Shown here piece by piece: positions 22,029-39,381 of a DNA stretch of 64,000 nt. The DNA comes from Planctomycetota bacterium (GTDB lineage: Bacteria; Planctomycetota; MHYJ01; WSZJ01): NCBI GenBank assembly GCA_038060895.1, contig JBBTCT010000022.1, positions 160,001-224,000 of the forward strand. Reading direction: 5' to 3'. Position 1 is the stretch's first letter, and every line of letters starts with the position of its first letter. Under the pieces are notes generated by a model. The model saw nothing but the letters and a program-made list of their open reading frames with translations, was not told the DNA's origin and ran no database searches. Both the position numbers and the translations under genes were made by a program.

Positions 22029-22102
22029 TGCCCTCGGCTGGATTCGAACCAGCACGAACATGGCTCTCGACCATGCGCCTCTGCCCATTGGGCTACGAGG
22101 GC
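22029..22102 (-). tRNA. trnL: tRNA-Leu(GAG), short variable loop, C33
   Basis: GCCCTCG...CATGG-TCGAGAG-CCATG...GCTGG-TTCGAAT-CCAGC-CGAGGGC-A. Confidence 0.88.
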
Positions 22103-22398
22103 AAATCTGTCCGACGGATCTTCCTTTCATGCCCCGGGCTGTACGCAAATACGAACTATCCGGGGTACCGGCTCGGGCTGTACTTCCGGATCCAGGACCG
22201 GCGTGTAAAGCCAAGCCTGGCTTGGGATTCCGACGGAAAGGAGCTTTCCAAGCTCGATCTTCGGTCGCCGACCACTATCGGGAGGAAGTCTAGGAAGATG
22301 ATCGCCCAAGAGGCCCTCGAGGTTCATCGCTCGCCGAAGTGATTCCGGTACCTCGGCCGAGGATTGCCATCGAGCTCTCGATGAGACGTCACGGGTCG

Positions 22399-24651
22399 CT
22401 AGGAATCGGAAGCCGGGTCTTGGGGCAATTCGGAGGGGTGCTCATCTGCCTGCGGTACTTGGGCAGGAGGCTTTTGCTGTTTCAGCTTCTCGTGACAGAA
22501 AATGAACTGCTCTGCGACCAGAACATCCGGCGAGTCCGACGCATCCGGGAACTCCTTACGGTTCTTGAAATCTCCCGCGCAGTGCGAAACGACCAAACTC
22601 GCGAGCTTGTCGGAGTCCACGAACCACTCAATCTCTTCCATGGTGCGGGCACCGACCTCGCCGACGTGTGCGATTCGAGACTTTGCGTACCAAGCCCGAG
22701 GAGCGACCGCACGCAGGAATCTGATGATCTGTTTCGCATCCTTCGCGAAAAGCTCCAACAGGTACGCCTCAACCGGCGTCTTTCCTTCGTGTCGTCGCCA
22801 GTCACCCAGGGGATTCCGAGCGCCGTGCTCCGCATCGTCGAGAAAGTCGTGGCCGGTTGCCGCCGCCTTCTTGACTCGCTCCACGAATGCTTTTCGAACA
22901 CGCTCGAATGCTGGTTGGTCGAGATCGTCCTTCTCTGCGCGTTCTTCGCGGCCGGAGTACATCGCCCGGATGCACTCCGAAGAAAAGTGGATTGGTTCCG
23001 CGGTCATGACTACTGTCGTGGCGACTCGTTCGCGCTCGTTCATCTCAGGAATTTGCCGAAGTAGATCTGAGACGAGGAACGCAGCTTGGGCTCGCGGCTC
23101 CAGGAATGGAACCGAGGATCGAGGCGCAGGAATTTGTGCGCAGCGCGGAGCCAAAGCGATTGCCAATCGCTCAGCGGCTCGCGGTGGTGCCGTCGCGGCC
23201 GCGAATCGAAGCTTTTCGATTCCCCGAGATGCCTTGAGCGGACTCAAGACGTTCTCGATGGCTTTGACCAAGTCGTCCTCAGTTCCGGTGGCGGCCAACG
23301 AGAATAACTGTCTTATTTCGCGATCCGCGACGTCGCGCAATCCGATCGCATGCGTGAAGTAGCGCTCGCTGTACTCAGGGCTGCAAACCCTTCGATCACT
23401 CCGCCAGCGTTCGAGCCACTCCGCTGGATACTCCGAATGACCGAACACGGCCTCGCTGCGCGGGAACAGTTCGATCAGCAGATTTCGTGCGGCTCGAGAA
23501 ACTACTTCCGGCATCGCTTCCAGAGTTGGATTCAGAAGCTTTGCGATCTCACGTTGTTCCTTCGGCGGTTTGCGATGCTCAGACTCGACGCCGGAAAACT
23601 CGTCAAGGTGGGAGCGCACGATTTCGAATACGTCAGGATGAAAGACTCGGAGGGCTTCCACCAAGAGCAAGTCGGCGAGGTTTACCTCCTCCTTGAGCAT
23701 CGGTAGCGCGAAAGCAACGGCGTTACAGAATCTCTTCGCTCGCCGGGGTGTCGAAAGTTCTACCTCCGCGCCTTCGTGAAAAGCGGACACGAATCGATCG
23801 ACCTCGCTTTGACTAAGTTCAACTCCTGCTTCCTTCAAGACTTGATTGAGCAGAGTGAAGCAAAAACTCCGAAGATCCTCGCTCGCGGCCGCAGGTAGGT
23901 TGAGAGGAAGCTGAACGATCTTCTCCAGAAATGCCCTTCCGCTGGCCGAGTCTCCGCCATAGGTTGCACCTAGCGCATTCGCAACAATCGTGTCGTCGAA
24001 AGCGAGGACATAAACGACATTCGGAAGATCAGCGCATGCCTTGACCAAGCGAAACAGCAGGTGGATCTCGTGGTTGTCCAGGCGGTCGATGTCATCGATC
24101 AGGACGACAACTCTCTTGTCGCTGGCTGCAAGAGCTTCAACGAGTCGCTCTCTCGACTGGTCGATCGTTGGTTGGCCCAGCTCAGCCGCCAACCCCGTCA
24201 CTTCCTTTGCGACTTGAGCGACTGGTCCAGGAATCACTCCAACAACTGGAGCTCCAAACCTACCCCAGCGACCGAGCCTTTCACAGATCTGCTCGATCAC
24301 GCCCTGTAGCTTCTTCCCCAAACTGGACGCCAATGAGTGAAAGAAGCCGAACAACATTCCGGTTTCATCGGTAAATCGCCATGGGTTGAACGAAACCAGC
24401 GAGATTCCCGCATCCTTTTGGAGATCTTCGCGAATGAAATTGAGAACGCTGGTTTTCCCGTCTCCCCAGGGTCCATGGATGCCAATAATCCAATTGCTAC
24501 CGCGCGACAGAGAACGAATTGTCTTACAGATTCCATCCGCAAACGGACGTCTGTTCAGTTGATCTTCCGCTTGGCCGCTGATCGCGGTATCCGTTAGGAA
24601 TCGGCCAGGCTCGTCAGCGTTATTCACGTGTGTTCCCTGAGAAGTGAGCAT
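22399..24651 (-). CDS. KAP family P-loop NTPase
   Basis: DQLNR, IGIHGPWGDGKT (Walker A), VVVLIDDIDRL (Walker B), FLEKIVQLP, TPRRAKR; start uncertain. Confidence 0.9.
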   Translation of the reverse strand: MLTSQGTHVNNADEPGRFLTDTAISGQAEDQLNRRPFADGICKTIRSLSRGSNWIIGIHGPWGDGKTSVLNFIREDLQKDAGISLVSFNPWRFTDETGMLFGFFHSLASSLGKKLQGVIEQICERLGRWGRFGAPVVGVIPGPVAQVAKEVTGLAAELGQPTIDQSRERLVEALAASDKRVVVLIDDIDRLDNHEIHLLFRLVKACADLPNVVYVLAFDDTIVANALGATYGGDSASGRAFLEKIVQLPLNLPAAASEDLRSFCFTLLNQVLKEAGVELSQSEVDRFVSAFHEGAEVELSTPRRAKRFCNAVAFALPMLKEEVNLADLLLVEALRVFHPDVFEIVRSHLDEFSGVESEHRKPPKEQREIAKLLNPTLEAMPEVVSRAARNLLIELFPRSEAVFGHSEYPAEWLERWRSDRRVCSPEYSERYFTHAIGLRDVADREIRQLFSLAATGTEDDLVKAIENVLSPLKASRGIEKLRFAAATAPPRAAERLAIALAPRCAQIPAPRSSVPFLEPRAQAAFLVSDLLRQIPEMNERERVATTVVMTAEPIHFSSECIRAMYSGREERAEKDDLDQPAFERVRKAFVERVKKAAATGHDFLDDAEHGARNPLGDWRRHEGKTPVEAYLLELFAKDAKQIIRFLRAVAPRAWYAKSRIAHVGEVGARTMEEIEWFVDSDKLASLVVSHCAGDFKNRKEFPDASDSPDVLVAEQFIFCHEKLKQQKPPAQVPQADEHPSELPQDPASDS

Positions 24652-24974
24652 TTGTTCACGGGCGAATAATGTCAGATCGGCTGGGCCTGAACTCCGCGGT
24701 CCTGCCGTGTGGCTGGACATGCACGACATTCGGGAGAATCTAGAATTCCTGTACTAAAGTTGTCATCTGTTGTCCCTGGGAGTGAAGAGGGGCGCGCCTG
24801 GCTCGCGCCCCTCCCGAAAGTGTTCCGGCTAGAAGTGGAAGAATCTCAGTATCGAGGCAATCCACAGTGCCTCGCTGGCCTTTTCAATCAGACAGCAAAA
24901 GTGATAAAGCGCACGCCATAACCACAGCCATCTCTGCTTATCCACCTGTTCCATCTCACTTCCTTTCAAAAGCA

Positions 24975-25376
24975 CTAGAGAATTGGAGCCGCACATTGCG
25001 GATTTCCATTTGGGGCGGTCCGGCCAGGACAGAGTCTCCCCTCACCACCTTTATCGCTCGAGACGGCCTGAGGGTTCGCAGTAGTTCCGGAGTCCGGCGG
25101 CGCGACGAGTGTGAGCTTGAGAAGGGGGATTGGTGCCGCGCCGGCGGCCGCGAGGACGTTTCGTAGGTCAGCATCCCCCACGCCGATCTTTCGCGCCACG
25201 TCGACGAGCTTGTCTACGTTGTCGAGGCGTTTCGCATCAAGCTCAGCCTGGAGAAGATCGTCCTCGATCCGGCGTCGTCGACTGGGACTGACGCGTTGGA
25301 CGATGGCACTCACCGCGTCCACGATGACGCGGAGCACGCCAGCGACTCCGAAGACGTCCTTGGTTCCCGGGCCCAT
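24975..25376 (-). CDS. Hypothetical protein
   Basis: RBS ggaggg upstream of ATG; helical N-terminal half. Confidence 0.45.
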   Translation of the reverse strand: MGPGTKDVFGVAGVLRVIVDAVSAIVQRVSPSRRRRIEDDLLQAELDAKRLDNVDKLVDVARKIGVGDADLRNVLAAAGAAPIPLLKLTLVAPPDSGTTANPQAVSSDKGGEGRLCPGRTAPNGNPQCAAPIL

Positions 25377-25836
25377 CAGATTTCCCTCCGGTTGTGATCC
25401 TGCTTCCTCTTCTTTGCAGGAAAGCCGACCTTGAAAGCAACGTCTTTTTCGATCTCCTCAAGTGTGTCCGCGCCGGAGGTGCTCGGGAAAATCTACGCTA
25501 CCGTTACGCTACCCTTCGCCCGTTCGAACCCCTGGAAAGCAAAGGGCGAACGAACGCGCGAGAGGCATGAGGTACGAGACCTGCTTCGCACATGAGCCGT
25601 TCTCGCACGAGGGAGAGGCTAAGTGCAAATTTGACGCAGGAGCATTCCGCTCGATAATTTCACAACTACATACGGCACAGTGCTTTACAGAGAATCAGAA
25701 AATTCGGATTCACGTGTCGTCTCTTGGTGTGATCGACTCCGTTGCTGCTCTCGTACGCCGCGCGCAGCAGGGTCTTAGACTTAGCCACGATCGAGCCCGA
25801 ACCGATCCACAACCAGGATCGATTAGACTCCGCACC

Positions 25837-27234
25837 GTGCTGCTCACCATCACCACTTCCAGTTCCCCCGCCACCGATCTGGGATTCCTTCTCCACAAGA
25901 ATCCAGCCCGCGCGCAATCCTTCGACCTCTCCTTCGGCAAAGCCCACGTTTTCTACCCCGAAGCGACGGAGCAGCGCTGCACGGCGGCGCTCTTGCTCGA
26001 GATCGACCCGATCGGCCTCGTGCGGGGAAAGCCGGGCAGTAGCGAAGGACAGTCACTCGACCAGTACGTGAATGACCGGCCCTACGTCGCTTCCTCGTTC
26101 CTGAGCGTGGCGATCTCGCAGATCTTCGGCTCGGCGCTTGCCGGGCGCAGCAAAGAGCGGCCCGAACTGGCGACGAAGCCGATGCAGCTCAAGGCAACGC
26201 TCTCGGTCATCCCATGCCGCGGTGGGGAGCCCTTTCTGCGGTCGCTCTTCGAGCCGCTCGGATATCGGGTCAGCGTCGAGTCGCACCCACTCGACGCGAC
26301 CTATCCCGACTGGGGCGACAGCGCGTACTTCACGCTCCACCTCCAGGGAACGTGCATGCTTCACGAGCTCCTGAGCCACCTTTACGTGCTGGTCCCGGTG
26401 ATGGACAACTCAAAGCACTACTGGGTCGGCGAGGACGAGGTCGAAAAACTGCTTCGTCACGGCGAGGGCTGGCTGGCCGGGCATCCGGAGAAGGACGCGA
26501 TCGCCCGCCGCTACCTCAAGCACCGACGGGACCTGTACCGCGACGCGTTGTCCCGGCTGGTCGAGGACGATCTCGATGAGCTGGAGTCAATGCGTGAGGG
26601 CCAGGCAAAGCAGGAAGCGGGGCTGGAAGAGAAGATCCGGCTTCACGACCTGCGGATGGGTGCGGTCGTCGCCGTCCTGCGCGAAATCGGCGCGAAGAGC
26701 GTCATGGACCTCGGCTGCGGCGAGGGCCGGCTGCTCCGCGACCTGTTGGCCGACAAGTCCTTCGAGCGCGTGCTCGGGATGGACGTGTCGCATCGCGCGC
26801 TCGAATTCGCGAGCGACAAGCTCAAGCTGGAGCGGATGCCGGAAATCCAGAAGTCGCGCCTGCAGCTCATCCAGGGATCGCTGACGTATCGCGACAAGCG
26901 TCTCGAGGGCTTTGACGCAGCGGCGCTGATCGAGGTGGTCGAACATCTCGACCCGGGTCGCCTTGACGCGTTCGAGCGCGTTCTGTTCGAGCACGCGAAG
27001 CCCAAGTTCGTGGTCCTCACGACTCCGAACTCAGACTACAACGTGAAGTTCGAGACGCTCCCGGCGGGCCAATTTCGACATAAGGACCACCGGTTCGAAT
27101 GGTCGCGTGCCGAATTTCGGGCGTGGGCGGAACGCGTCGCCGGCCGTGCCGGCTATCGAGTCCGGTATCTCCCCGTGGGCCCCGAGGACGCCGATGTCGG
27201 CGCACCCACCCAGATGGCGGTGTTCTCGCGGTGA
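25837..27234 (+). CDS. hen1: 3'-terminal RNA ribose 2'-O-methyltransferase Hen1
   Basis: LLTITT...PATDLGFLLHKNP, QYVNDRPYVASS, DNSKHYWV, DLGCGEG, IEVVEHLD, FRHKDHRFEW. Confidence 0.95.
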   Translation: MLLTITTSSSPATDLGFLLHKNPARAQSFDLSFGKAHVFYPEATEQRCTAALLLEIDPIGLVRGKPGSSEGQSLDQYVNDRPYVASSFLSVAISQIFGSALAGRSKERPELATKPMQLKATLSVIPCRGGEPFLRSLFEPLGYRVSVESHPLDATYPDWGDSAYFTLHLQGTCMLHELLSHLYVLVPVMDNSKHYWVGEDEVEKLLRHGEGWLAGHPEKDAIARRYLKHRRDLYRDALSRLVEDDLDELESMREGQAKQEAGLEEKIRLHDLRMGAVVAVLREIGAKSVMDLGCGEGRLLRDLLADKSFERVLGMDVSHRALEFASDKLKLERMPEIQKSRLQLIQGSLTYRDKRLEGFDAAALIEVVEHLDPGRLDAFERVLFEHAKPKFVVLTTPNSDYNVKFETLPAGQFRHKDHRFEWSRAEFRAWAERVAGRAGYRVRYLPVGPEDADVGAPTQMAVFSR

Positions 27235-29792: not shown

Positions 29793-30422
29793 TGCTTCGC
29801 AGAAACGGGAAGTTCACATCGTGCCGAAAAACATCGGACGGTATGTCCGAGCTAAAACATCGGGGCCGAGATCTATCCATTCTGTTAGTCCCCGGGAATC
29901 TCAACGGCAATCGCCCGTTGCTCGTCGTCATCTTCTTTCCGCAGCAGCCCCCATGCCATTCGCGCGATCCGAAAGAACTCTGGCAAGGGCTGAGTGCCGG
30001 CCCAAGAGGCCAGCGGCACACGCCTGACACCGCCACCTGACTTCCGGACCTGAGCGTCGATGTGGGCACTCGCCAGAGGCCGCTCCGCAAGCGGAACGAG
30101 CCGAAGTCGGTCACGAAATCTCCGAATCACGGTGTCGAGGCTCGTGGAATGCAGACTGCGATACGAGTCCGTCCCGCTCGGCCACTTGAGAACGAAGAAC
30201 AGGTACCCCGTAGCTTTGTTGGGGACCCTTCGGTTTCGAGAAACGACCCGATAAACGCGCATGAACCGGAAGTCTACGAAATCGATGAATGTCTCCGTGC
30301 GGAAAGCGTTGACGCATGTGAAGCCCCGAACAGCCCGCCGCGTCACCGCGCTTGATTCGGGGCGACCCTCGGGACTAGCCTCCTGCTTTGGGACGCGTTC
30401 GCATCAGAAGGGTTACGATTTC

Positions 30423-30650
30423 ATGAGCGAAGGTGACGAGTACCTGCGGATGTACCCGCGCCTCGAAAAGTGGGTCCATCGGTGTGTAGGGTGCCAGCAT
30501 CGCGGGTACAAGCCCGAGCTGCCCGCCCACATTCCCCCGGGGGGCGCCGCGAAGAACATCCGTTCGCTCTTTGACGAACTCAGCCTCAACGGCGACGGAC
30601 TTTGCCAACAGTGCGCGAGAAACGTCGGGCGTGGGAACGCGGGTGCCTAA
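30423..30650 (+). CDS. Small putative Zn-binding protein
   Basis: 75 aa with CVGC...CQQC. Confidence 0.55.
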   Translation: MSEGDEYLRMYPRLEKWVHRCVGCQHRGYKPELPAHIPPGGAAKNIRSLFDELSLNGDGLCQQCARNVGRGNAGA

Positions 30651-30699
30651 ACTGGTGACCTAGGCCAGCTGGAGTCCAAAGAGTGCTTGATCCAAGAAG

Positions 30700-30843: not shown

Positions 30844-31018
30844 AACACGGATGCGCGATGACTGGCCCGCTTCCTCAAAGGCAATTGCCACGGGGTCCGG
30901 CAGATCTTCACCTACTTTAACGAGCGGAGGCCTTGGTTCACCCGATCAGGACCTGAACCAGTTGATGCGACTCCTGTGACAGTGGCAGAATACGACTTCG
31001 CATCTCTGGGGAGGGTCG

Positions 31019-31429
31019 ATGTCAATCACACTGCTGATTCGGGACGAGTCCGCGACGGGCGAAAGCTACCAGGAACTCCCCATCGAGTTCGAGACGGAGC
31101 GCATCACCGTGCGGGACCTGATCCGGGAGCGGGTGAGGCAGGAGGTGTCCTCGTTCAATCAGAAGCAGGGAGACCTGCACTTTCGCGGCCTGGTGCAACC
31201 GACCGACACCGAGCGGGTGCTGAACGGGCGGCGAACCGAGTATCGGCTGAAGGCTCCGCGTTCGATTGACTGGGAGGAGCAGTTCAGTCGCGCGATCGAG
31301 GCTTTCGGCCGGAGCGGGTTCTTTCTGCTCGTGGGCGAAAAGCAGGTCGAGAGCCTTGATCAAGAGCTCCTGATCGAGCCAGACACCCGGGTCAGCTTCG
31401 TGAAGCTCGTCCCGCTCGTGGGAGGCTAG
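31019..31429 (+). CDS. Ubiquitin-like (beta-grasp) protein with C-terminal GG
   Basis: RBS ggaggg; ITVRDLIRERV, FFLLVGEKQV, DTRVSFVKLVPLVGG* resembles the MoaD/ThiS/Ubl C-terminus. Confidence 0.7.
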   Translation: MSITLLIRDESATGESYQELPIEFETERITVRDLIRERVRQEVSSFNQKQGDLHFRGLVQPTDTERVLNGRRTEYRLKAPRSIDWEEQFSRAIEAFGRSGFFLLVGEKQVESLDQELLIEPDTRVSFVKLVPLVGG

Positions 31430-31431
31430 GC

Positions 31432-34400
31432 GTGGCCAAGGAGTCGTTCTTCCACCGGTTCTCCGCGCCTTCGGGCGATCCGTTGGCCACGGAACACGAA
31501 GCGGTAGCCCTGTACGTCACGCAAGCGCTTGCCAGCCTGGGGAAGGAATCCTACTGGAAGGACCTGGACCTCAAGGCCATTCCCGCCGGCCAGGTCATTC
31601 TCGCGGCAAAACCGGAGCAGGCGCGCCGCTTTCTCCTTGCGGCCGTGGCACAGTCGGTGCACTGGGAACGCGAAATTGAGCAGGTCCGCGCCCAGGCCAA
31701 GAACGTTCACGAACAGATGAACGCTCATCACCTGCCCGGCTGGCTCGAAGCCTACGGACCTCAGCGGCAGACCATGCAGGTAGCGCAGGCGTTGCTGCGC
31801 CGTTCCCTGCCGCTGAAGAAGGACGACATTCGCTCGCTCCTCGCGTGGTGCATCTCCGGCAAGGACGGAATCAGCTTCATGCTCCCGATTGGATTCGTCA
31901 CGCGCGCGATCGAGCGCTACATCGCCGAAGAGAGCCTGGACCAGGAGATTCGCGCGCAATTGGAGGACTTCGGGAAGCGTCTCCGCGCTTCGCACGACAA
32001 GGATTCGAAGCGCTTCGCGACGGCGGTCGAGCAAATGTGTGCGGGCGAAGGCTCATTGGCGGAGACGCCCGTTCCCACGACCCGCACTCCGGCGCCGCGC
32101 CCTTCGCAGGCCGGAAATCCAACGATTCTCGTCGCGCTGAAGCAGAAGCTGGGAGTTGCCGGGACCACTCCTGAAGTCCCCCACAGCGAAACGGGGGCCG
32201 ATCGCTTTTCACTGCGCGCGGACTCGCCCTTAGGACCCGAACACGAAAAGCTCAACGCCGTGATGACCGAGGTCGTTGGCACGACGAACTACTACAGCCC
32301 GGATTTCAGGAAGCTCGCGTCAGGACGCGCCGTGCTCGACACCAGTCGACCCGAACGCGGCCGGATGCTCTTGGCTGGAGCCGAGCGTCGCATCGGCGTC
32401 CTCCTTGCTCCGGCGGCCGCGTTGAACGAGCCTGCCGTCTGGCAATCGCGCTATGCGGCCGCCGCCACAGTTTCTGCCCTGCGGCACTCTCCCGTGGACC
32501 TCGATCGCGCGCAGCTGTTCGATTTTCTTCTCTACCTGTCCGCGCTTCAGGGACGCGAGATTCTGAACTGGGCGGAAGACTTCCCACGATTCCTGACGCA
32601 GTTGGAGAGCGAGTCGGCGAGGGATCCGCTGACCGAGGGCGAAAGATACGTGCTCTTCCTCTGGCGTGCATGCCTCATGTCGGGGCCCCCGCTCGGGACG
32701 TCGTCTCAGGAAATTGCGAAGCTCACGGCCCTCATTGGCGATGGCGCGATGTTCTTTCTCGTTCCGGGCGAAGCCTGGAGCGACGCTTTGAACACCTCGC
32801 TGACGGAATTGCCGGCGCGTGGACGCGCCGCATGGAAGGATCTCCTCGTGCACGCTTTGACGGCCACCGCGTCCAGACCTTCCGAAAAGTGGTTGAAGAC
32901 GGGGCGAAAGCTGATCGAAGGGGTCGGAGCCGAAACTGCGCGCGACTTTCTCTCAGCCTGGCTCGCACTCGTCCAGAAGGGCCAGACTATCAGGAAGCCG
33001 GGCGCGGGAGACGTCATCCACGAAGAGAACGCGACCTGCCTGCGCGGCTTGCTGTGGCTTGTCCCGCTTCTTCTTCGCCGGGACGACCTGGCGCGGACTG
33101 TCTCCTCCGTCGCGCTTTCCGCATATCGAAAGATCCCGGGCGTCGGTCCCCGCGCAGTAAAAGTGGGAAACGCCGCTGTTTACGCCCTTTCCGAGCTCGG
33201 CTCGACGGACGCCGTCGGGCAGCTCGCCATGCTAAAGGTGCGTGTGAAGTTCGGAACCGCACAAAAGGAGATCGAGAAAGCCTTCGATGCTTCGGCACAA
33301 GCGCTCGGCTTGCCACGTGATCAGATTGAAGAAATGGGAGTTCCGTCCTACGGGCTTGAAGAAGTGGGGCGGCTCAAGGAATCGATCGGGCAGTACCAGG
33401 CCGAGCTCCTGGTGACGGGGAGCGACGCCGAGCTGAAGTGGTCGGACGCAGCTGGAAAGGCGCTCAAATCAGTGCCCGCTGCATTGAAGAAAGAGCACGG
33501 GGAAGAGTTAAAGGAACTTCAGCAGTCGCTGAAAGACATCCAGGCAATGCTGCCGGCTCAGCGCGACCGGATCGACGCTCTCTTTCTCTCGCAGAAATCA
33601 TGGCCGCTCGGGGCATGGCGCGAACGCTATCTGGACCACCCGCTGGTCGGCTCGATCTCGCGGCGCCTCATCTGGTGCGTCGACGGCGCGCCCGCACTGT
33701 TCCTGGACGGAACTGCATCCGATGTTCACGGGAAGTCATTCCGCGCTTCGGAAGGGGCGACGATCACCCTTTGGCACCCCGTCGGCCGGAGTGTCGTCGA
33801 GATAACGTCCTGGAGGCGCCGCCTCGAGTCGCTCGGAGTCACTCAGCCCTTCAAGCAGGCCCATCGCGAGATCTACCTGCTGACCGACGCGGAGCTGCGC
33901 ACGAGGACCTATTCCAATCGCTTCGCGGCCCACATCCTCCGGCAGCACCAGTTCAACGCTCTCTGTGCGGCTCGCGGCTGGAAGAACAAGCTGCGCCTCA
34001 TGGTGGACGACACTTACCCACCTGCGACTCGCGACCTGCCCCAGTGGGGGTTGCGAGTGGAGTTCTGGATCGAAGGCGTCGGCACCGAGTACGGCGGGGA
34101 CACGAACGAGTCCGGGGTCTACCTGCGCGTCGCCACGGATCAAGTGCGCTTCTACCGCAGAGAAACCGCCGAGAGCCGCGCCCATGCTGGCGGCGGCGGC
34201 TATGCAGCGAACGCCGGCGGGCCGGCGCACGGCAATGACATCGAACCACTGACTCTCGACCTCATTCCGCCGCTGGTCTTTTCAGAGAGCATGCGCGATG
34301 TTGACTTGTTTGTCGGCGTCGGCTCCGTCGGAAACGACCCCACCTGGCAGGATGGCGGTCCTCAGGGTGCCTTCCGCGCCTACTGGCAGAGTTACTCGTT

Positions 34401-34746
34401 TGGCGAGCTCTCCGCGAGCGCGGCGACGCGGCGGGAGGTGCTTCAGCGTCTCGTCCCGCGCCTCAAGATCGCCGACCGATGCTCCTTCGCGGACCGCTTC
34501 CTCATCGTGCGTGGTGAGAAGCGCACGTACAAAATCCACCTGGGCTCGGGAAACATCCTGATGGAACCGAATGACCAGTACCTCTGCATTGTTCCGGACC
34601 AGCGAGCTCGCTCGGCCGAAGAGAGCCTGTACCTCCCATTCGAGGGTGATTCCGTGCTCTCCATCATCATTAGCAAGGCGCTCCTTCTCGCCGCTGACTC
34701 GAAGATCAAGGATCCCACGATCGTGACGCAGATCGAGAAGGTCTGA
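31432..34746 (+). CDS. DUF4132 domain protein
   Basis: YLDHPLVG...RRLIW, ITLWHPV, QPFKQAHRE, FSESMRDVDLFV, YKIHLGSGN. Confidence 0.88.
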   Translation: MAKESFFHRFSAPSGDPLATEHEAVALYVTQALASLGKESYWKDLDLKAIPAGQVILAAKPEQARRFLLAAVAQSVHWEREIEQVRAQAKNVHEQMNAHHLPGWLEAYGPQRQTMQVAQALLRRSLPLKKDDIRSLLAWCISGKDGISFMLPIGFVTRAIERYIAEESLDQEIRAQLEDFGKRLRASHDKDSKRFATAVEQMCAGEGSLAETPVPTTRTPAPRPSQAGNPTILVALKQKLGVAGTTPEVPHSETGADRFSLRADSPLGPEHEKLNAVMTEVVGTTNYYSPDFRKLASGRAVLDTSRPERGRMLLAGAERRIGVLLAPAAALNEPAVWQSRYAAAATVSALRHSPVDLDRAQLFDFLLYLSALQGREILNWAEDFPRFLTQLESESARDPLTEGERYVLFLWRACLMSGPPLGTSSQEIAKLTALIGDGAMFFLVPGEAWSDALNTSLTELPARGRAAWKDLLVHALTATASRPSEKWLKTGRKLIEGVGAETARDFLSAWLALVQKGQTIRKPGAGDVIHEENATCLRGLLWLVPLLLRRDDLARTVSSVALSAYRKIPGVGPRAVKVGNAAVYALSELGSTDAVGQLAMLKVRVKFGTAQKEIEKAFDASAQALGLPRDQIEEMGVPSYGLEEVGRLKESIGQYQAELLVTGSDAELKWSDAAGKALKSVPAALKKEHGEELKELQQSLKDIQAMLPAQRDRIDALFLSQKSWPLGAWRERYLDHPLVGSISRRLIWCVDGAPALFLDGTASDVHGKSFRASEGATITLWHPVGRSVVEITSWRRRLESLGVTQPFKQAHREIYLLTDAELRTRTYSNRFAAHILRQHQFNALCAARGWKNKLRLMVDDTYPPATRDLPQWGLRVEFWIEGVGTEYGGDTNESGVYLRVATDQVRFYRRETAESRAHAGGGGYAANAGGPAHGNDIEPLTLDLIPPLVFSESMRDVDLFVGVGSVGNDPTWQDGGPQGAFRAYWQSYSFGELSASAATRREVLQRLVPRLKIADRCSFADRFLIVRGEKRTYKIHLGSGNILMEPNDQYLCIVPDQRARSAEESLYLPFEGDSVLSIIISKALLLAADSKIKDPTIVTQIEKV

Positions 34747-35134
34747 GAGGCCCCGGACCCTGCGCGCTTAAGGCAGTCTCGGAATCTCGCCGTGCCGGAC
34801 GGAAGTAACTGCATCGGATAACCGAGCCCAGACCGGCGAGTTCTTCGTTGCTTGAAAAGGGCTCCCCGATCAGAACTCGAACTGATTGCGCGAGCATTTC
34901 GCGATGATGGCGCTTCATGCATCGAAGCTGTCAAGGCGCCGCGTCCACGGGACAGGGCCTACTCGTGCGCTCAGCGGAAAGTTCGGATTTCATCCAGACT
35001 GGTGACCAGACTGGATACGAATACGAACTATGGCCGAGATGGCGAAGGGCCTCCAGTTCAGCTAACTGAAGCCAGCGGCGGAAGTTGCATCAATTTCTGC
35101 CTGCGACAGCTGATAGTTCGTATTTCATCCAAAG

Positions 35135-35207
35135 TGCCCCCCGCAGGATTCGAACCTGCACAAGACCGGTTTTGAATCGGTCGCCTCTGCCGTTGGGCTA
35201 CGAGGGC
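35135..35207 (-). tRNA. trnL: tRNA-Leu(CAA), short variable loop
   Basis: Loop TTCAAAA; T-loop TTCGAAT; G7:G66 mismatch. Confidence 0.82.
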
Positions 35208-35219
35208 CTGCGAATCAAA

Positions 35220-35290
35220 AGCTCCCGATGGGAATCGAACCCACACCCTCCTGCTTACGAGGCAGGTGCTCTCCTTTGAGCTACAAGAGC
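35220..35290 (-). tRNA. trnT: tRNA-Thr(CGT)
   Basis: CCTGC-CTCGTAA-GCAGG. Confidence 0.85.
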
Positions 35291-35293
35291 GGA

Positions 35294-35364
35294 TGCGCTC
35301 GTCAGGACTCGAACCTGCATCGGCCGGTTATCGACCGGCTGCTCTACCGCTGAGCTACGGGCGC
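35294..35364 (-). tRNA. trnI: tRNA-Ile(GAT), C33
   Basis: GCCGG-TCGATAA-CCGGC. Confidence 0.85.
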
Positions 35365-35367
35365 GCA

Positions 35368-35438
35368 AGCCTCTCGAGGGGGACGATCCCTCTTCTCCTG
35401 CCTGGGAAGCAGGCGTTCCACCGTTAAACCAGAGAGGC
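35368..35438 (-). tRNA. trnG: tRNA-Gly(CCC), aberrant T-loop
   Basis: CCTGC-TTCCCAG-GCAGG; T-loop ATCGTCC; U73. Confidence 0.75.
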
Positions 35439-35442
35439 GAAG

Positions 35443-35514
35443 TGCTCTCGGCAGGAATCGAACCTGCGGTCTTCAGCATGTCGGGCTGCCGCTCTTCCGC
35501 TGAGCTACGAGAGC
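35443..35514 (-). tRNA. trnV: tRNA-Val(GAC), C33
   Basis: CAGC-CCGACAT-GCTG. Confidence 0.85.
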
Positions 35515-35581
35515 CGTTCGACTCGCTTCGCTCGCTCACGGCGGAGCAGACGAGTTCGGTCGAATCGCGGGCAAAACCAGA

Positions 35582-35652
35582 TGGTCCCAGGAGGAGTTGA
35601 ACCTCCGTCGCCGGTATGTGAGACCGGCATTCTCCCGTTGAACTACGGGACC
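35582..35652 (-). tRNA. trnV: tRNA-Val(CAC)
   Basis: CCGGT-CTCACAT-ACCGG. Confidence 0.87.
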
Positions 35653-35654
35653 GA

Positions 35655-35727
35655 TGCTCGGGGGAGGATTCGAACCTCCACTGACCAGCTTCTGAGACTG
35701 GTGCCTCTGCCGTTGGGCTACGCGAGC
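35655..35727 (-). tRNA. trnL: tRNA-Leu(CAG), short variable loop
   Basis: CCAGT-CTCAGAA-GCTGG. Confidence 0.83.
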
Positions 35728-35856
35728 GTTGTGGTTGTCGCTGGGGACGACTGGATGTGGGCGGCCGTGCGGCGGAGGCGAAGGGTGCCCCGGCGCGCGC
35801 CTGGTTCATCAGCACTCTTGCGCCCGCAGCCTCCGACGCCGGGCGCCCACGTCCAG

Positions 35857-35932
35857 TCGGGATGGCTGGATTTGAACCAGCGATCTCCTCGTCCCGAACG
35901 AGGCGTGTTGAGCCAGGCTTCACTACATCCCG
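35857..35932 (-). tRNA. trnP: tRNA-Pro(CGG)
   Basis: C1:G72, CCTCG-TTCGGGA-CGAGG. Confidence 0.9.
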
Positions 35933-35934
35933 GA

Positions 35935-36006
35935 AGCGACTGGTGGGACTCGAACCCACGTCGACCACCATGGCAAGGTGGCGCTCAGCCTCTGAGCCAC
36001 AGCCGC
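35935..36006 (-). tRNA. trnG: tRNA-Gly(GCC)
   Basis: CCACC-TTGCCAT-GGTGG, U73. Confidence 0.9.
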
Positions 36007-36020
36007 GTTTTGATTCAAGA

Positions 36021-36093
36021 AGCCCTCGGCGGGGATCGAACCCGCATCAGCTTGTTTGGAAGACAGGCGCCTTCGCCGTTCGGCCACGAGAGC
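36021..36093 (-). tRNA. trnG: tRNA-Gly(TCC)
   Basis: Loop CTTCCAA, U73. Confidence 0.85.
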
Positions 36094-36107
36094 GGAATTG
36101 TTGTAAG

Positions 36108-36185
36108 TGGGCCCTCGACGGGAGTCGAACCCGTCGTCTCCCTTCCTCATACGGAAGGGTGTCTCGCCGCTCGACTACGAGGACC
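36108..36185 (-). tRNA. Non-canonical tRNA-like RNA with enlarged anticodon arm (possible His(ATG))
   Basis: GGTCCTCG/CGAGGGCC 8-bp acceptor, normal T-arm ACGGG-TTCGACT-CCCGT, anticodon arm CCCTTCC-GTATGA-GGAAGGG. Confidence 0.65.
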
Positions 36186-36189
36186 GTTA

Positions 36190-36273
36190 TGGGTGCGGCA
36201 GGAGTTGAACCTGCTGAGCCCGCGAGGGCTGCTGGGTTACGGCCAGCTCAGTTTTCCGATTCCGTACACACCC
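36190..36273 (-). tRNA. trnY: tRNA-Tyr(GTA), C33, long variable arm
   Basis: GCTGG-CCGTAAC-CCAGC. Confidence 0.87.
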
Positions 36274-36394
36274 TGAGTTCGCGCGACGGGTCGGCGAGTC
36301 GCGCAATTGACGGTGGGCGCTTCGACTCGTGTCCGGGCGCTTCGCGCCCGGCACTCGCTCAGGGCATTCGCCTCGCCAGAGCCACCGTTCGCGG

Positions 36395-36457
36395 TCGGCT
36401 CCGCCATGAGCGAGCCCCCGTGAGAGGCGCGGTGCGCCTCTCACGGTGCGAGTCGAA
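36395..36457. repeat. REP-like element (TTCGACTC...CTCGCTCA family), copy 1
   Basis: tcggctccgccatgagcgagcccccgtgagaggcgcg...gcgagtcgaa; near-identical copy at 37276-37339. Confidence 0.75.
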
Positions 36458-36529
36458 TGGAAGCGGCAGGGTTCGCACCTGCGTCGGCTCGTTTAGGAAA
36501 CGAGGGCCTGTCTACTCGGCCACACTTCC
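36458..36529 (-). tRNA. trnR: tRNA-Arg(CCT), G55 T-loop
   Basis: CTCGT-TTCCTAA-ACGAG; T-loop TGCGAAC. Confidence 0.8.
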
Positions 36530-36531
36530 GA

Positions 36532-36602
36532 TGGGGACGGAGGGAGTTGAACCCGCATCACGAGGTTCGTAGTCTCGTGTCCTTCCGTTGGACGACGTCC
36601 CC
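36532..36602 (-). tRNA. trnR: tRNA-Arg(ACG)
   Basis: Loop CTACGAA. Confidence 0.82.
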
Positions 36603-36608
36603 GACTCA

Positions 36609-36681
36609 TGGTGAAGGGTGGGATCGAACCACCACATCCTGGTCTTCAGCCAGGCGCTCAGACCCTCTGAGCTACTTCACC
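36609..36681 (-). tRNA. trnF: tRNA-Phe(GAA)
   Basis: CCTGG-CTGAAGA-CCAGG. Confidence 0.9.
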
Positions 36682-36686
36682 GCAAA

Positions 36687-36757
36687 TAGGCGCGGCGGGA
36701 ATCGAACCCGCTCTTTCAGGTTGAAGGCCTGGGTGCCTGCCATTAGCTGACGCGCCC
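36687..36757 (-). tRNA. trnE: tRNA-Glu(TTC), C33
   Basis: CAGG-CCTTCAA-CCTG. Confidence 0.78.
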
Positions 36758-36768
36758 GCACGATTGGA

Positions 36769-36841
36769 TGGGAGCGGAGGGATTCGAACCCTTCCTCGTC
36801 CGGGTTAAAAATCCGGTGCTCAGCCACTGAGCGACGCGCCC
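36769..36841 (-). tRNA. trnK: tRNA-Lys(TTT)
   Basis: Loop TTTTTAA. Confidence 0.83.
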
Positions 36842-36849
36842 TTGCGCAA

Positions 36850-36921
36850 TAGAGTCGGTGGGACTTGAACCCACATAGGCCTGCTTAAGAGGCAGGAGCT
36901 CGGCCGTTGAGCGACGACTCT
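36850..36921 (-). tRNA. trnK: tRNA-Lys(CTT)
   Basis: CCTGC-CTCTTAA-GCAGG. Confidence 0.88.
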
Positions 36922-36925
36922 GTAA

Positions 36926-36998
36926 TAGGGATGGAGGGATTCGAACCCTCGTCTCCAGGCTGAGAACCTGGCCGCCTTGGCCACTGGCCGACATCCCC
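36926..36998 (-). tRNA. trnE: tRNA-Glu(CTC)
   Basis: CCAGG-TTCTCAG-CCTGG. Confidence 0.85.
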
Positions 36999-37009
36999 GG
37001 GCGTAGAAA

Positions 37010-37080
37010 CAGGGGGGGCTGGATTCGAACCAGCAGAACGAGTGTCAGAGGCTCGGGGGTTACCGTTACCCGACCCCCCT
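37010..37080 (-). tRNA. trnQ: tRNA-Gln(CTG)
   Basis: Loop CTCTGAC, G73. Confidence 0.82.
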
Positions 37081-37087
37081 CTTTTGA

Positions 37088-37158
37088 CAGAGGCGGAAGG
37101 AATCGCACCCTCATCACCGGACTTGGAAACCGGAGTCCTGCTGTTGGACGACGCCTCT
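37088..37158 (-). tRNA. trnW: tRNA-Trp(CCA), G55 T-loop
   Basis: Loop TTCCAAG, A1:U72, G73; T-loop TGCGATT. Confidence 0.82.
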
Positions 37159-37163
37159 ACGAA

Positions 37164-37235
37164 TGGAAGTGGTGGGAATCGAACCCACAGTCTCCTGCTT
37201 GCGGAGCAGGCGCCTTCCCGTTGGGCTACACCCCC
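37164..37235 (-). tRNA. trnA: tRNA-Ala(CGC), C33
   Basis: G3:U70; CCTGC-TCCGCAA-GCAGG. Confidence 0.87.
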
Positions 37236-37275
37236 GAATGCAAGTCCTTCAACTGGTCAAAGCCTCCGTCCCGTC

Positions 37276-37339
37276 TCGGCTCCGCCATGAGCGAGCCCCC
37301 GTGAGAGGCGCGAAGCGCCTCACATGGGGGCGAGTCGAA
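37276..37339. repeat. REP-like element, copy 2
   Basis: Near-identical to 36395-36457; also abuts a tRNA 3' end. Confidence 0.75.
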
Positions 37340-37411
37340 TGGAAGCGGCGGGAATCGAACCCGCATGGGCCTGTCTGCCGGACAGGTGCCTTCCCGTTAG
37401 GCAACGCCCCC
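37340..37411 (-). tRNA. trnA: tRNA-Ala(GGC), C33
   Basis: G3:U70; CCTGT-CCGGCAG-ACAGG. Confidence 0.87.
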
Positions 37412-37433
37412 GACGTTTTCGTCGTTTTCCATT

Positions 37434-37550
37434 CCCGTGCGCGAGGATGTCGTGCGGCGCAGCGAGGAGGTGCGTCGGGCCCGCGCCGGCCATTTGGCGC
37501 GGAGTCCGGCGCGCTTCCTCGCGAAGCCGCACGACATCCTCGCGCACGGG
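37434..37550. repeat. Long hairpin at the 3' end of tRNA-Ser(GCT)
   Basis: cccgtgcgcgaggatgtcgtgcggc...gccgcacgacatcctcgcgcacggg. Confidence 0.85.
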
Positions 37551-37638
37551 GAGTGGGGTTTTCTACCCCCGGGGGCCGCCTTGAGGGCGGCCCGCCTCGT
37601 TAGCAATGAGGTGCTTTAAGCCGCTCAGCCACCTCCCC
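37547..37638 (-). tRNA. trnS: tRNA-Ser(GCT), degenerate T-arm
   Basis: Loop TTGCTAA, long variable arm, T-loop lacks TTC. Confidence 0.7.
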
Positions 37639-37666
37639 GGATTTGCGCGATGGGATCGCGCATTGA

Positions 37667-37755
37667 AGGAAGGTGAAGGATTCGAACCTTCGTCCCCCTC
37701 GCGGGGGCTCCTGTTTTCGAGACAGGCGCGATAAGCCGGACTCTGCCAACCTTCC
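37667..37755 (-). tRNA. trnS: tRNA-Ser(CGA)
   Basis: CCTGT-CTCGAAA-ACAGG, long variable arm. Confidence 0.9.
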
Positions 37756-37760
37756 GTGGA

Positions 37761-37833
37761 CAGGGGCACCAGGATTCGAACCTGGATCAACCTCCTTAAC
37801 AGGGAGGTGACTTACCGGTTAGCCCACACCCCT
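37761..37833 (-). tRNA. trnN: tRNA-Asn(GTT)
   Basis: CCTCC-CTGTTAA-GGAGG, G73. Confidence 0.87.
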
Positions 37834-37853
37834 AACTTGCACGGGCCTTTCCG

Positions 37854-37954
37854 CTCGTGCCGCGTGCGGCGGAGCGAATCTGGACGCCGCGCCCGCGCCG
37901 GACTTTCGGCGCGGCGTGCGGCGTCCGGATTCGCGGAGCCGCATGCGGCACGAG
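37854..37954. repeat. Long hairpin at the 3' end of tRNA-Asp
   Basis: ctcgtgccgcgtgcggc..gcgaatctggacgccgc / gcggcgtccggattcgc..gccgcatgcggcacgag. Confidence 0.85.
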
Positions 37955-38024
37955 GGCGACGGGATTTGAACCCGTGATCTCCGCCGTGACAGGGCGGTGT
38001 CTTGAGCCTCTGGACGACGCCCCC
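37951..38024 (-). tRNA. trnD: tRNA-Asp(GTC)
   Basis: CCGCC-CTGTCAC-GGCGG, G73. Confidence 0.92.
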
Positions 38025-38028
38025 AGAA

Positions 38029-38100
38029 TCGCGCCTGCAGGAATCGAACCTGCCTGCTCCTGGTTCCAGGCCAGGCGCGCAGCCACTGCGCCAAGACGCG
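38029..38100 (-). tRNA. trnP: tRNA-Pro(TGG), C33, A37
   Basis: C1:G72, A73; CCTGG-CCTGGAA-CCAGG. Confidence 0.85.
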
Positions 38101-38129
38101 AGGAATTGCTTTTTTGCCGGGCCGTTCCA

Positions 38130-38217
38130 TTTGCGGAGGGGTGGGAGTCGAAGGAACGCGGAGTCGCGCGGCCGTTCGTGCGACTCCGCGTTCCTTCGAC
38201 TCCCACCCCTCCGCAAA
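38130..38217. repeat. Long near-perfect hairpin at the 3' end of tRNA-Cys
   Basis: tttgcggaggggtgggagtcgaaggaacgcggagtcgc...gcgactccgcgttccttcgactcccacccctccgcaaa. Confidence 0.9.
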
Positions 38218-38290
38218 GCGCGGAAGTGGATTCGAACCACTGCGCACCGGTTTTGCGGACCGAGCCGTTGAGCCACTCCGGCATCCGCGC
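38217..38290 (-). tRNA. trnC: tRNA-Cys(GCA), C33
   Basis: CGGT-CCGCAAA-ACCG, U73. Confidence 0.85.
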
Positions 38291-38296
38291 GCTTGA

Positions 38297-38367
38297 TAGC
38301 GGGAAGGGGAATCGCACCCCTGTGTGCGGCTTATGAGACCGCCGATCAGCTACTGATCCATCCCGCA
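38297..38367 (-). tRNA. trnM: tRNA-Met(CAT), initiator-like (unpaired 1:72), G55 T-loop
   Basis: GCGGT-CTCATAA-GCCGC; T1:T72. Confidence 0.78.
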
Positions 38368-38455
38368 GGGATTTGAGGTGGGAGGTTGTTGATTTGCGAG
38401 GCGAGACGAACGGCCGCCTCGCCTCGCACATCAACAACCTCCCACCTCAAATCCC
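38368..38455. repeat. Long hairpin abutting the 5' end of tRNA-Met
   Basis: gggatttgaggtgggaggttgttgat...atcaacaacctcccacctcaaatccc. Confidence 0.9.
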
Positions 38456-38567
38456 CGGTACGGCAATGACCGCACGAACAGGGGAGAAAAGAACCGGCCC
38501 GGGCGCGTCGCCGTGAGGGGGGGAGGGGCGGACGTCGGGGGAGGGCCATTGTTGCCCGGGCCGGGGA

Positions 38568-38640
38568 TGTGTCCGGCAGGAGTCGCACCTGCAACCTCCA
38601 GATTCGGAGACTGGGGCTCTTCTGGTTGAGCTACAGACAC
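38568..38640 (-). tRNA. trnR: tRNA-Arg(CCG), A37, G55 T-loop
   Basis: Loop CTCCGAA; T-loop TGCGACT. Confidence 0.82.
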
Positions 38641-38667
38641 AGGGAAGAAGGGTCGTTTTGCCGTTCG

Positions 38668-38793
38668 CCAATTCGCGCTTCGGGATGATGAAGCGACGGG
38701 GTCGGGGCGAGCGGCCACACTTGAAGGCAAGCTGACCAGAGATTGTGAGCGAGCTCCGACTCCGTCGCTTCATCATCCCGAGGCGCGAATTGG
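38668..38793. repeat. Long hairpin (41-bp stem) at the 3' end of tRNA-Gln(TTG)
   Basis: ccaattcgcgcttcgggatgatgaagcgacggggtcggggc...gctccgactccgtcgcttcatcatcccgaggcgcgaattgg. Confidence 0.9.
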
Positions 38794-38860
38794 GGCGGCA
38801 CGACTCGAACGTGCACGGCGAGGTTCAAGGGCTCGCGGCCTACCTTTAGCTGACGCCCCA
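38790..38860 (-). tRNA. trnQ: tRNA-Gln(TTG), C33
   Basis: U1:A72, TGGGG start; loop CCTTGAA. Confidence 0.82.
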
Positions 38861-38878
38861 GAAGTTTCGTTGCCGTCC

Positions 38879-38994
38879 TGAATGCAGGGGTGTGATCGAT
38901 CGATTGGCTTGTCGTTCGGCCCGGGCGGAGCCGGCCGTATGGCGGAGGTCGGGACGAACGACGAGCCAATCGATCGATCACACCCCTGCATTCA
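38879..38994. repeat. Long hairpin (~40-bp stem) at the 3' end of the CTC tRNA
   Basis: tgaatgcaggggtgtgatcgatcgattggcttgtcgttcg...cgaacgacgagccaatcgatcgatcacacccctgcattca. Confidence 0.9.
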
Positions 38995-39067
38995 TCGGGG
39001 TTGAAGGAGTTGAACCTTCATCTGCGCATTGAGGGGGCGCCGTCCTCAGCCATTAGACGAAACCCCA
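38995..39067 (-). tRNA. tRNA with CTC anticodon (Glu) on a Gln-like acceptor, C33
   Basis: TGGGGTT/AACCCCG acceptor; GCGCC-CCCTCAA-TGCGC. Confidence 0.7.
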
Positions 39068-39089
39068 GGAAGGCGAGGGCAGCAGAGAT

Positions 39090-39230
39090 TCAGAAAAACC
39101 GGCTCCCGATTCCCGGGTTGGGAATGGGATGACATGGAACCGGAAGCCGGTTCGGGAAGATCCGCCGGTTATCAAAGATCACTTCGCGCTGCGTCGGTTG
39201 ACCGCAACTTGCGCTTCCATCTCCTGGCAT
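39090..39230 (-). CDS. Putative leader peptide (46 aa) of the tRNA array
   Basis: AGGAGG RBS 6 nt before ATG; the ORF runs through the boxA-like site and the terminator. Confidence 0.45.
   Translation of the reverse strand: MPGDGSASCGQPTQREVIFDNRRIFPNRLPVPCHPIPNPGIGSRFF
39094..39152 (-). terminator. Intrinsic terminator/attenuator hairpin
   Basis: AACCGGCTTCCGGTTCC...GGAATCGGGAGCCGGTTTTT; the G-U pairs fit the minus-strand RNA. Confidence 0.6.
39168..39182 (-). promoter_or_regulatory. boxA-like antitermination element
   Basis: GTGATCTTTGATAAC resembles the rrn boxA (CTTTGAAAAC/CTTTAACAA). Confidence 0.55.
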
Positions 39231-39245
39231 GACGTTCCTCCTGCA

Positions 39246-39316
39246 AGGGACCGGTCGGGGTTGCACCGACGTCTCCCGGGCCACAGCCGGGCGGTCTGCT
39301 GTTGAGCTACAGTCCC
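39246..39316 (-). tRNA. trnH: tRNA-His(GTG)-like, lacking G-1:C73
   Basis: CCCGG-CTGTGGC-CCGGG; C at -1, U73; T-loop TGCAACC. Confidence 0.7.
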
Positions 39317-39338
39317 GTGGCGGCGCCGGTCTGGAAGG

Positions 39339-39365
39339 TTGATGAGTGAAGCGGCGAAAAGGTTC
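39339..39365 (-). promoter_or_regulatory. Candidate ECF-sigma promoter for the array
   Basis: GAACC-N16-CATCAA just upstream of the first tRNA. Confidence 0.35.
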
Positions 39366-39381
39366 GCGCGTGTGGAAAACG

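Follow-up and report, generated by a model that had tools for sequence, protein, structure and literature searches.

Long tRNA arrays (L-arrays), as defined in PMC8421152, occur in phyla that include the Planctomycetes. For the L-array of Anabaena, that source reports that 23 of the 26 tRNAs are charged and that the array is co-regulated with rtcB, hen1-pnkP being induced late, under translational stress; it also notes that rtcB, one of the RNA-processing genes, adjoins some arrays. Arrays in Mycobacterium are discussed in PMC12803027 as a possible anti-defence device, and PMC5852040 describes a jumbo phage, XacN1, with 56 tRNAs and homologues of PNKP and Hen1. Here we describe an L-array of a Planctomycetota bacterium, together with a hen1-pnkp RNA repair operon that lies between the array and an isolated tRNA-Leu gene. 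The stretch of DNA analysed, 64,000 nucleotides (nt) long, is called the window (G000:C22:160001-224000); the assembly, G000, comprises 5.42 Mb in 47 contigs and is 86.5% complete. In our judgement, the array is probably a phage-type L-array that has long been kept, and hen1-pnkp is most likely cargo at an insertion hot spot at its end.

ARAGORN predicted 35 tRNA genes in the window, on the minus strand throughout. Thirty-four of these co-oriented genes are packed into 4.2 kb (35134-39316), which agrees with the definition of an L-array as at least 20 genes with short spacers, and their anticodons account for all 20 amino acids. The genes on which the following argument depends are these:

35134..39316, minus strand: long tRNA array of 34 genes, in the order of transcription His ... 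Thr, Leu(CAA) (ARAGORN, Rfam, and orthologous arrays in 7/7 congeners)
22028..22102, minus strand: tRNA-Leu(GAG), class I, 75 nt, 86.7% identical to Leu(GAG) of the congener G006 (ARAGORN, Rfam)
35134..35207, minus strand: tRNA-Leu(CAA), class I, 74 nt, without a long variable arm and with a phage-type D-arm (ARAGORN)
35655..35727, minus strand: tRNA-Leu(CAG), class I, 73 nt (ARAGORN)
36109..36184, minus strand: tRNA-like gene with an irregular 8-nt anticodon loop (ARAGORN '???(tatg)', no Rfam match)

The Rfam tRNA gathering score was exceeded by 31 of the 34 array genes and by the isolated Leu(GAG). Ser(GCT) at 37546-37639 falls below it (25.2 bits), and the sole Rfam match of Tyr at 36190-36273 is to the tRNA-Sec model (26.7 bits). 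An earlier, sequence-only reading of this DNA had described 34 clustered tRNA or tRNA-like genes, an isolated Leu(GAG) and hen1-pnkp between them, and had assigned the cluster to all 20 amino acids. ARAGORN and Pfam bear out this layout, and the ARAGORN anticodons of the 34 array genes bear out the assignment. The tRNA-like gene at 36109-36184 is placed between Gly(TCC) and Tyr, and homologues occupy the same slot in the congeners G001, G003, G004 and G005. The acceptor, D and T arms are kept in these five species; the anticodon arm, long and irregular, differs from species to species, and the ARAGORN label varies between ???, Gln and Asn.

The array is conserved throughout the genus. A DNA search with it over 41 genomes gave strong multi-segment matches in all seven other species of the genus (G001-G007, one genome per species), so the array is present in 8/8 genus genomes, which are 81-94% complete. 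The 33 genomes from other families of the class gave single-tRNA-sized matches only, and no similar array, in this search. The congener arrays have 16-36 genes, some being ended by a contig edge, in nearly identical order, and all seven sit between homologues of the window regions 19.6-22.0 kb and 39.9-41.8 kb. In G001-G006, the gene right after Leu(CAA) is Leu(GAG), and the G007 contig shows Leu(GAG) and no Leu(CAA). We conclude that the isolated Leu(GAG) of G000 was once the final gene of the array and has been severed from it by an insertion.

Covariation was tested on the 33 anticodon families with at least four sequences, five smaller families being left out. Compensatory change was found in 134 of 722 predicted pairs, which are altered on both sides, and 5075 of 5161 stem cells (98.3%) are paired, the structures having been predicted on the same alignments, which favours pairing. 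Between the array tRNAs of G000 and their orthologues, the median identity is 0.89 (n=196); four housekeeping tRNA genes compared across species are 89-100% identical. This comparison of sequences argues for a maintained, distinct tRNA set whose cloverleaf has been retained by selection, and the one shared site points to vertical inheritance within the genus. The phage-type Leu tRNAs suggest a foreign origin of the array. If the array were the functionless, decaying remains of a tRNA cluster from a phage or plasmid, these Leu tRNAs would be expected, as would the 3/34 genes under the Rfam threshold and the variable hairpins that invade the spacers. We disfavour this explanation as very improbable, since the site and a near-identical gene order have been kept in eight species despite a flanking-protein identity of 60-77%, the stems are paired and covary as described, and the phage and plasmid collections hold no close relative of the array.

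A separate housekeeping tRNA set exists in G000. The whole assembly yielded 85 ARAGORN predictions, namely the 34 array genes, the isolated Leu and 50 others. Eight of the 50 were set aside as doubtful (85-97 nt long or odd), leaving 42 credible ones. These ~42 dispersed genes have 39 anticodons and include class-II Leu genes of 82-87 nt; the array tRNAs are 49-78% identical to the housekeeping genes with the same anticodon. The array adds to this dispersed set, as the definition of L-arrays demands, and the separate set that the sequence-only reading required for its spare tRNAs is present. The array is likely to be a functional spare tRNA set.

Four anticodons, Asn(GTT), Arg(CCG), Ala(GGC) and Val(CAC), are seen in G000 only in the array. 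Together with the conservation of the array in 8/8 species with compensatory changes, this would fit an essential, constitutively expressed decoding set that is not spare at all. However, a pattern search found a second, identical tRNA-Asn on another contig in 6/7 congeners, and the gap in G000 therefore fits its 86.5% completeness. The remaining 30 array anticodons duplicate housekeeping ones, and divergence between species is slightly greater in the array tRNAs than in the four housekeeping genes examined. An essential decoding set is, in our view, rather improbable.

We then investigated the Leu tRNAs. The three Leu genes of G000 are 73-75 nt long, too short for a long variable arm, and those of the genus as a whole are 73-78 nt. 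The Anabaena pCC7120delta array, in which ARAGORN finds 24 genes, has four Leu genes of 75-78 nt whose D-arm is common with that of the G000 array Leu genes, and the Leu(CAA) genes of the two arrays are 71% identical. The Leu D-arm motif is present in at least 124 IMG/VR contigs. Among 80 IMG/VR loci taken (L123-L202), 82 of the 83 tRNAs with the motif prove to be Leu genes, 73-79 nt long and frequently clustered with other tRNAs (up to 23 per 4 kb). The motif also marks 49 of 401 Planctomycetota genomes, against two control matches. In an open-access literature search we found no description of short Leu tRNAs in phages or arrays, which is not proof that they are unpublished. As for the array as a whole, INPHARED phages and PLSDB plasmids hold no close relative, the matches covering at most 3% of the query. 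A lone Leu(TAA) of 73-76 nt is the only tRNA at 24 of 46 Planctomycetota loci outside the genus (L279-L324).

The array belongs to the L-array kind already described, also for Planctomycetes. Like the L-array on plasmid delta of Anabaena/Nostoc sp. PCC 7120, it is a long, co-oriented, supernumerary array beside a dispersed housekeeping set, with class-I Leu tRNAs that have the same D-arm. Unlike that array, it is chromosomal and occupies one site across the whole genus, not being sprinkled, and the gene orders of the two arrays show no synteny. The comparison of array-to-array with array-to-housekeeping identity gave a mixed result without a trend over 18 pairs with Anabaena. Further differences from Anabaena are that the long spacers of the G000 array are filled by long hairpins, that no HNH endonuclease gene is found among the ORFs scanned on both sides of it, and that promoter direct repeats common to the array and the repair genes are lacking here. 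The array also resembles those of Mycobacterium genomes, plasmids and phages (PMC12803027) in that ~30 or more clustered tRNAs for 19-20 amino acids have diverged from the chromosomal isoacceptors. The Mycobacterium arrays, by contrast, are mostly on plasmids, phages and mobile elements and vary between strains, and the phage and plasmid collections gave no similarity to the G000 array above that of a single tRNA. Judging from the Anabaena L-array and from phage clusters, the array most likely supplies tRNAs unlike the housekeeping ones, which would let translation go on when housekeeping tRNAs are depleted, cleaved or limiting.

The repair operon between Leu(GAG) and the array has two genes:

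25837..27234, plus strand: hen1, RNA 3'-terminal 2'-O-methyltransferase, partner of Pnkp (Pfam Hen1_L, E 4e-115, and methyltransferase domains); the GTG start at 25837 was chosen by comparison with the locus L001
27231..29729, plus strand: pnkp, 5'-kinase / 2',3'-phosphatase / ligase (Pfam AAA_33, Metallophos and PNKP_ligase; GTG start)

The hen1 stop and the pnkp start overlap in GTGA. The three Pnkp domains align to the solved domains of C. thermocellum (4gp6, 4j6o, 4drf), and the ligase motif KHMGSR is conserved. As in other Pnkp-Hen1 RNA repair systems, a three-domain Pnkp with its ligase motif is joined through overlapping codons to a Hen1 with a Pnkp-binding region and a methyltransferase, and the operon is intact and canonical. 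The proteins themselves are ordinary, and only their position inside a tRNA array sets them apart. Among the best 80 Pnkp loci from GTDB genomes, Hen1 adjoins Pnkp in 72. The second operon of the genus is that of G006, the most distant congener (60% identity in a 697-amino-acid flanking protein, against 75-77% for the others). The two operons are 88.6% identical over 3998 nt, and the likeness stops ~20 nt outside both genes. Hen1 is 92% identical in amino acids between G000 and G006, and Hen1 and Pnkp together are at 92-93%, against 38-75% for the flanking open reading frames (ORFs).

The operon is part of a block of inserted DNA, to which the following features belong:

22160..35019, no strand: cargo block of 12.9 kb between Leu(GAG) and Leu(CAA), absent at this position in 7/7 congeners
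22148..22159, plus strand: left 12-nt direct repeat (the box)
35020..35031, plus strand: right 12-nt direct repeat (the box), inside the trailer
34965..35133, minus strand: trailer element of ~165 nt with inverted box copies, starting 8 nt after Leu(CAA) in G000; no Rfam family
22399..24729, minus strand: KAP-family P-loop NTPase, PifA-like, predicted to be of the abortive-infection type (Pfam KAP_NTPase, E 6.9e-46)
31019..34746, plus strand: 136-amino-acid ORF, then a 1104-amino-acid protein with DUF4132 and DUF7737 (the large gene at 31432-34746; Pfam)

Genomic islands commonly integrate next to tRNA genes. In the 5.4-Mb assembly, the 12-nt box has three exact copies, all at the two block junctions, and two of them form the direct repeat. 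The GC content is 0.565-0.58 at 22-26 kb, against ~0.66. G004 and G007 have a homologue of the trailer, beginning 8 nt past Leu(GAG). G002 has a degenerate version, and neither the empty site of G003 nor G005 has one. Box repeats likewise bracket the cargo of G004. The trailer copies at 34965-35133, at 15219-15385 of L093 and at 5082-5250 of L101, from three species, have long blocks of 100% identity, exceeding the conservation of the tRNAs. The trailer might serve in recombination or encode a small RNA. The ends of the congener arrays carry different cargo or none:

G002: a 761-amino-acid unknown protein
G003: no cargo (the empty site)
G004: an extracytoplasmic function (ECF) sigma fusion and DUF1428
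G005: CheR-TPR
G006: oxidoreductase genes and hen1-pnkp, the latter just past Leu(GAG)

The block shares with tRNA-adjacent genomic islands its position right downstream of a tRNA 3' end, the direct repeats, the deviant GC content, the empty site in a relative and a gene with a likely defence role; the PADLOC PifA match (E 1e-84 over positions 7-671 of 720 of the profile) is full-length. It differs from typical islands in that the target consists of the end genes of a tRNA array together with the conserved trailer of 165 nt, and in that no integrase of its own was seen among the ORFs scanned. The 136-amino-acid ORF ends 3 nt before the DUF4132 gene, which is absent from G006. A conserved partnership of the KAP or the DUF4132 gene with hen1-pnkp was rejected, each being near Pnkp in 1/80 loci.

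We propose that a mosaic block of hen1-pnkp, the PifA-like NTPase and the DUF4132 gene was inserted into the trailer behind the terminal class-I tRNA-Leu, which would have parted Leu(GAG) from the other 34 genes. The array end would be a hot spot with species-specific cargo or none, and the linkage would mainly reflect the landing site of mobile DNA. If spare tRNAs and repair do act in synergy, that would be an extra confined to this lineage. The presence of hen1-pnkp beside the array is most likely due to the site being an insertion hot spot.

We then investigated whether arrays and RNA repair genes are linked elsewhere. Pnkp was found in only 2/8 genus genomes (G000 and G006), against 8/8 for the array. 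Among the 80 Pnkp loci, a single one, L001, in a Planctomycetota metagenome-assembled genome, holds an array; its Pnkp is 93% identical, equal to G006. The 79 other loci have at most two tRNAs each in the DNA around them and no array. We also took 46 Planctomycetota loci outside the genus from the Leu-motif matches, seven of which hold clusters of at least 10 tRNAs. By tblastn, Hen1, Pnkp, KAP and DUF4132 are absent within ~10 kb of these seven arrays, and no RtcB, RNA-ligase or Pnkp Pfam domain occurs in the 109 ORFs there. IMG/VR gave two partial relatives of Pnkp, matching the phosphatase domain only, in a single-protein search that detects close relatives only. RtcB is found in 8/8 genus genomes, and the rtcB of G000 lies on contig C31, apart from the array. 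It covers C31:80353-81651 in a 499-amino-acid frame. The RtcB matches on G003:C12, G004:C19, G006:C160, G001:C250 and G002:C21 come in pieces or fall within open frames of 637-1027 amino acids, which suggests inteins in these five congeners.

Shared regulation found no support either. A sigma-70 promoter scan gave three sites in 18.9 kb, against 2.6 expected, and none within the 57-nt array leader. No motif beyond chance is common to the leader (with the region upstream of a 75-amino-acid ORF that precedes it) and the upstream regions of hen1, KAP and DUF4132; the longest common words are 8-9 nt, no better than in shuffles. Two RNA-library runs of one sample gave identical contigs over parts of the array, the leader, hen1, pnkp, the KAP gene and DUF4132, at a depth of 2-3 and scattered as in a low-depth DNA run, so that they are indistinguishable from DNA carry-over and speak for neither expression nor silence.

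These results bear on the proposal, made in the sequence-only reading, that the array and hen1-pnkp form a selected, co-regulated module against anticodon nucleases or translational stress, in which spare tRNAs replace cleaved ones, Pnkp reseals and Hen1 methylates the junction. In phage T4, tRNAs are paired with Pnk/Rnl1 against PrrC. The array and hen1-pnkp adjoin in both G000 and G006, in two arrangements, Hen1 and Pnkp appear to be under strong purifying selection relative to the flanking ORFs, and a PifA-like defence gene lies within the same block. Co-regulation of the Anabaena L-array with rtcB and the late induction of hen1-pnkP there (PMC8421152), as well as the combination of 56 tRNAs with PNKP and Hen1 homologues in XacN1, point in the same direction. 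The present region resembles that phage (PMC5852040) in that one replicon has a full or large tRNA complement, here with phage-type Leu tRNAs, as well as enzymes that heal and seal RNA ends; unlike XacN1-type phages, it is part of a bacterial chromosome without phage genes. Against the module, the array (minus strand) and hen1-pnkp (plus strand) are oppositely oriented with 5.4 kb between them, the array leader and the hen1 upstream region have no common motif beyond chance, and what other species carry at this site has nothing to do with RNA. Neither the other 79 Pnkp loci nor the other seven planctomycete arrays join the two, and six of the eight array-bearing genus genomes lack a detected Pnkp. 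Of the original proposal, the separate, maintained tRNA set and the intact Hen1-Pnkp stand; its conserved linkage of arrays with repair genes and its shared regulation do not, the upstream regions and the RNA-library contigs giving no support to the word 'regulated'. We regard a replace-and-repair module as a credible but unlikely explanation.

Several points weigh against a long-kept array with hen1-pnkp as mere hot-spot cargo. Arg(CCG), Ala(GGC) and Val(CAC) are seen only in the array of the 86.5%-complete G000, and the array may not be purely spare. The 11 ORFs scanned in the block showed no domain of an integrase or transposase. At 81-94% completeness, Pnkp could have been missed in some genus genomes. 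Both Pnkp-bearing genus genomes have hen1-pnkp beside the array, at two positions relative to Leu(GAG), and such adjacency could reflect selection and not merely a shared target site. The published link of L-arrays with RNA repair genes in cyanobacteria (PMC8421152) and the gene content of XacN1 lean the same way. Finally, the identity at four-fold sites of hen1-pnkp between G000 and G006 (0.66 and 0.70; n=242 and 465) is higher than that of the flanks (0.40-0.72, weighted mean ~0.55, n=586), in a test that rests on six short flanking ORFs, some possibly misframed, an antisense ORF inside hen1 having been dropped. This hints that hen1-pnkp was transferred within the genus and landed repeatedly beside the array. 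In the single-gene tree, which is midpoint-rooted only, one gain with losses and two gains of hen1-pnkp are indistinguishable.

In a bolder reading, the array end would be a dedicated, integron-like capture site, and the genus would be building a 'tRNA protection island' in which spare phage-type tRNAs, RNA repair and abortive-infection genes are selected together. The terminal class-I Leu genes and the box-bearing trailer would then recruit cassettes through a recombinase encoded elsewhere, and hen1-pnkp would have landed independently in two lineages. We give this idea little credence.

The DNA upstream of the array and the array spacers have features of their own:

39436..39663, minus strand: small ORF of 75 amino acids with an AAGGAG ribosome-binding site and a signal-peptide-like N-terminus (read from the sequence)
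39374..39409, minus strand: intrinsic-terminator-like hairpin and T run, 57 nt upstream of tRNA-His and downstream of the 75-amino-acid ORF
38102..38216, minus strand: long spacer hairpin with 37 uninterrupted pairs (ViennaRNA; sub-threshold Rfam matches to microRNA precursors)
38368-38564, 38642-38789, 38861-38994, 37835-37949, 37412-37545 and 36274-36457: further spacer hairpins (ViennaRNA)

The small ORF has a Gly/Asp/Pro-rich tail, and its region is conserved in G002 and G005. Between 35728 and 39245 of the window, nearly every spacer of more than 100 nt forms a long, near-perfect hairpin. The eight arrays together have 136 spacers under 60 nt and 94 of 60-400 nt; of the latter, 67 have a folding energy of -0.5 kcal/nt or lower. 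The spacers that hold hairpins vary from species to species, as though hairpins were gained and lost, and the short-read contigs of run X1 end at them. One possibility is that RNase III processes the transcript at the hairpins; another is that these are small palindromic mobile elements.

Two further loci outside the window contain unusual tRNA genes. At G000:C22:273515-273721 (L119), two adjoining class-II tRNA genes have anticodons unexpected for their bodies: CCA (Trp) in the one whose body is Ser-like and TGG (Pro) in the one whose body is Leu-like. The seven congeners yielded no orthologue of this pair, which may encode mistranslating tRNAs or be an artefact of prediction. At G000:C9:99057-99129 (L120), an orphan 73-nt tRNA called Pro(TGG) has an acceptor and a D arm that resemble those of the array class-I Leu genes.

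The neighbourhood of Hen1-Pnkp is best explained by a hot spot, and single-genome synteny should not be taken for a functional module. As a simple marker, the class-I Leu tRNAs connect bacterial L-arrays with the tRNA sets of phages, and they raise the question of their charging by leucyl-tRNA synthetase (LeuRS). L-arrays are known but poorly understood. The one described here, a supernumerary phage-type set of ~35 tRNAs, appears to have been inherited at one chromosomal site and kept functional, and its long retention, with selection acting on tRNA structure, speaks for a genuine role in the cell and not for passing mobile DNA.

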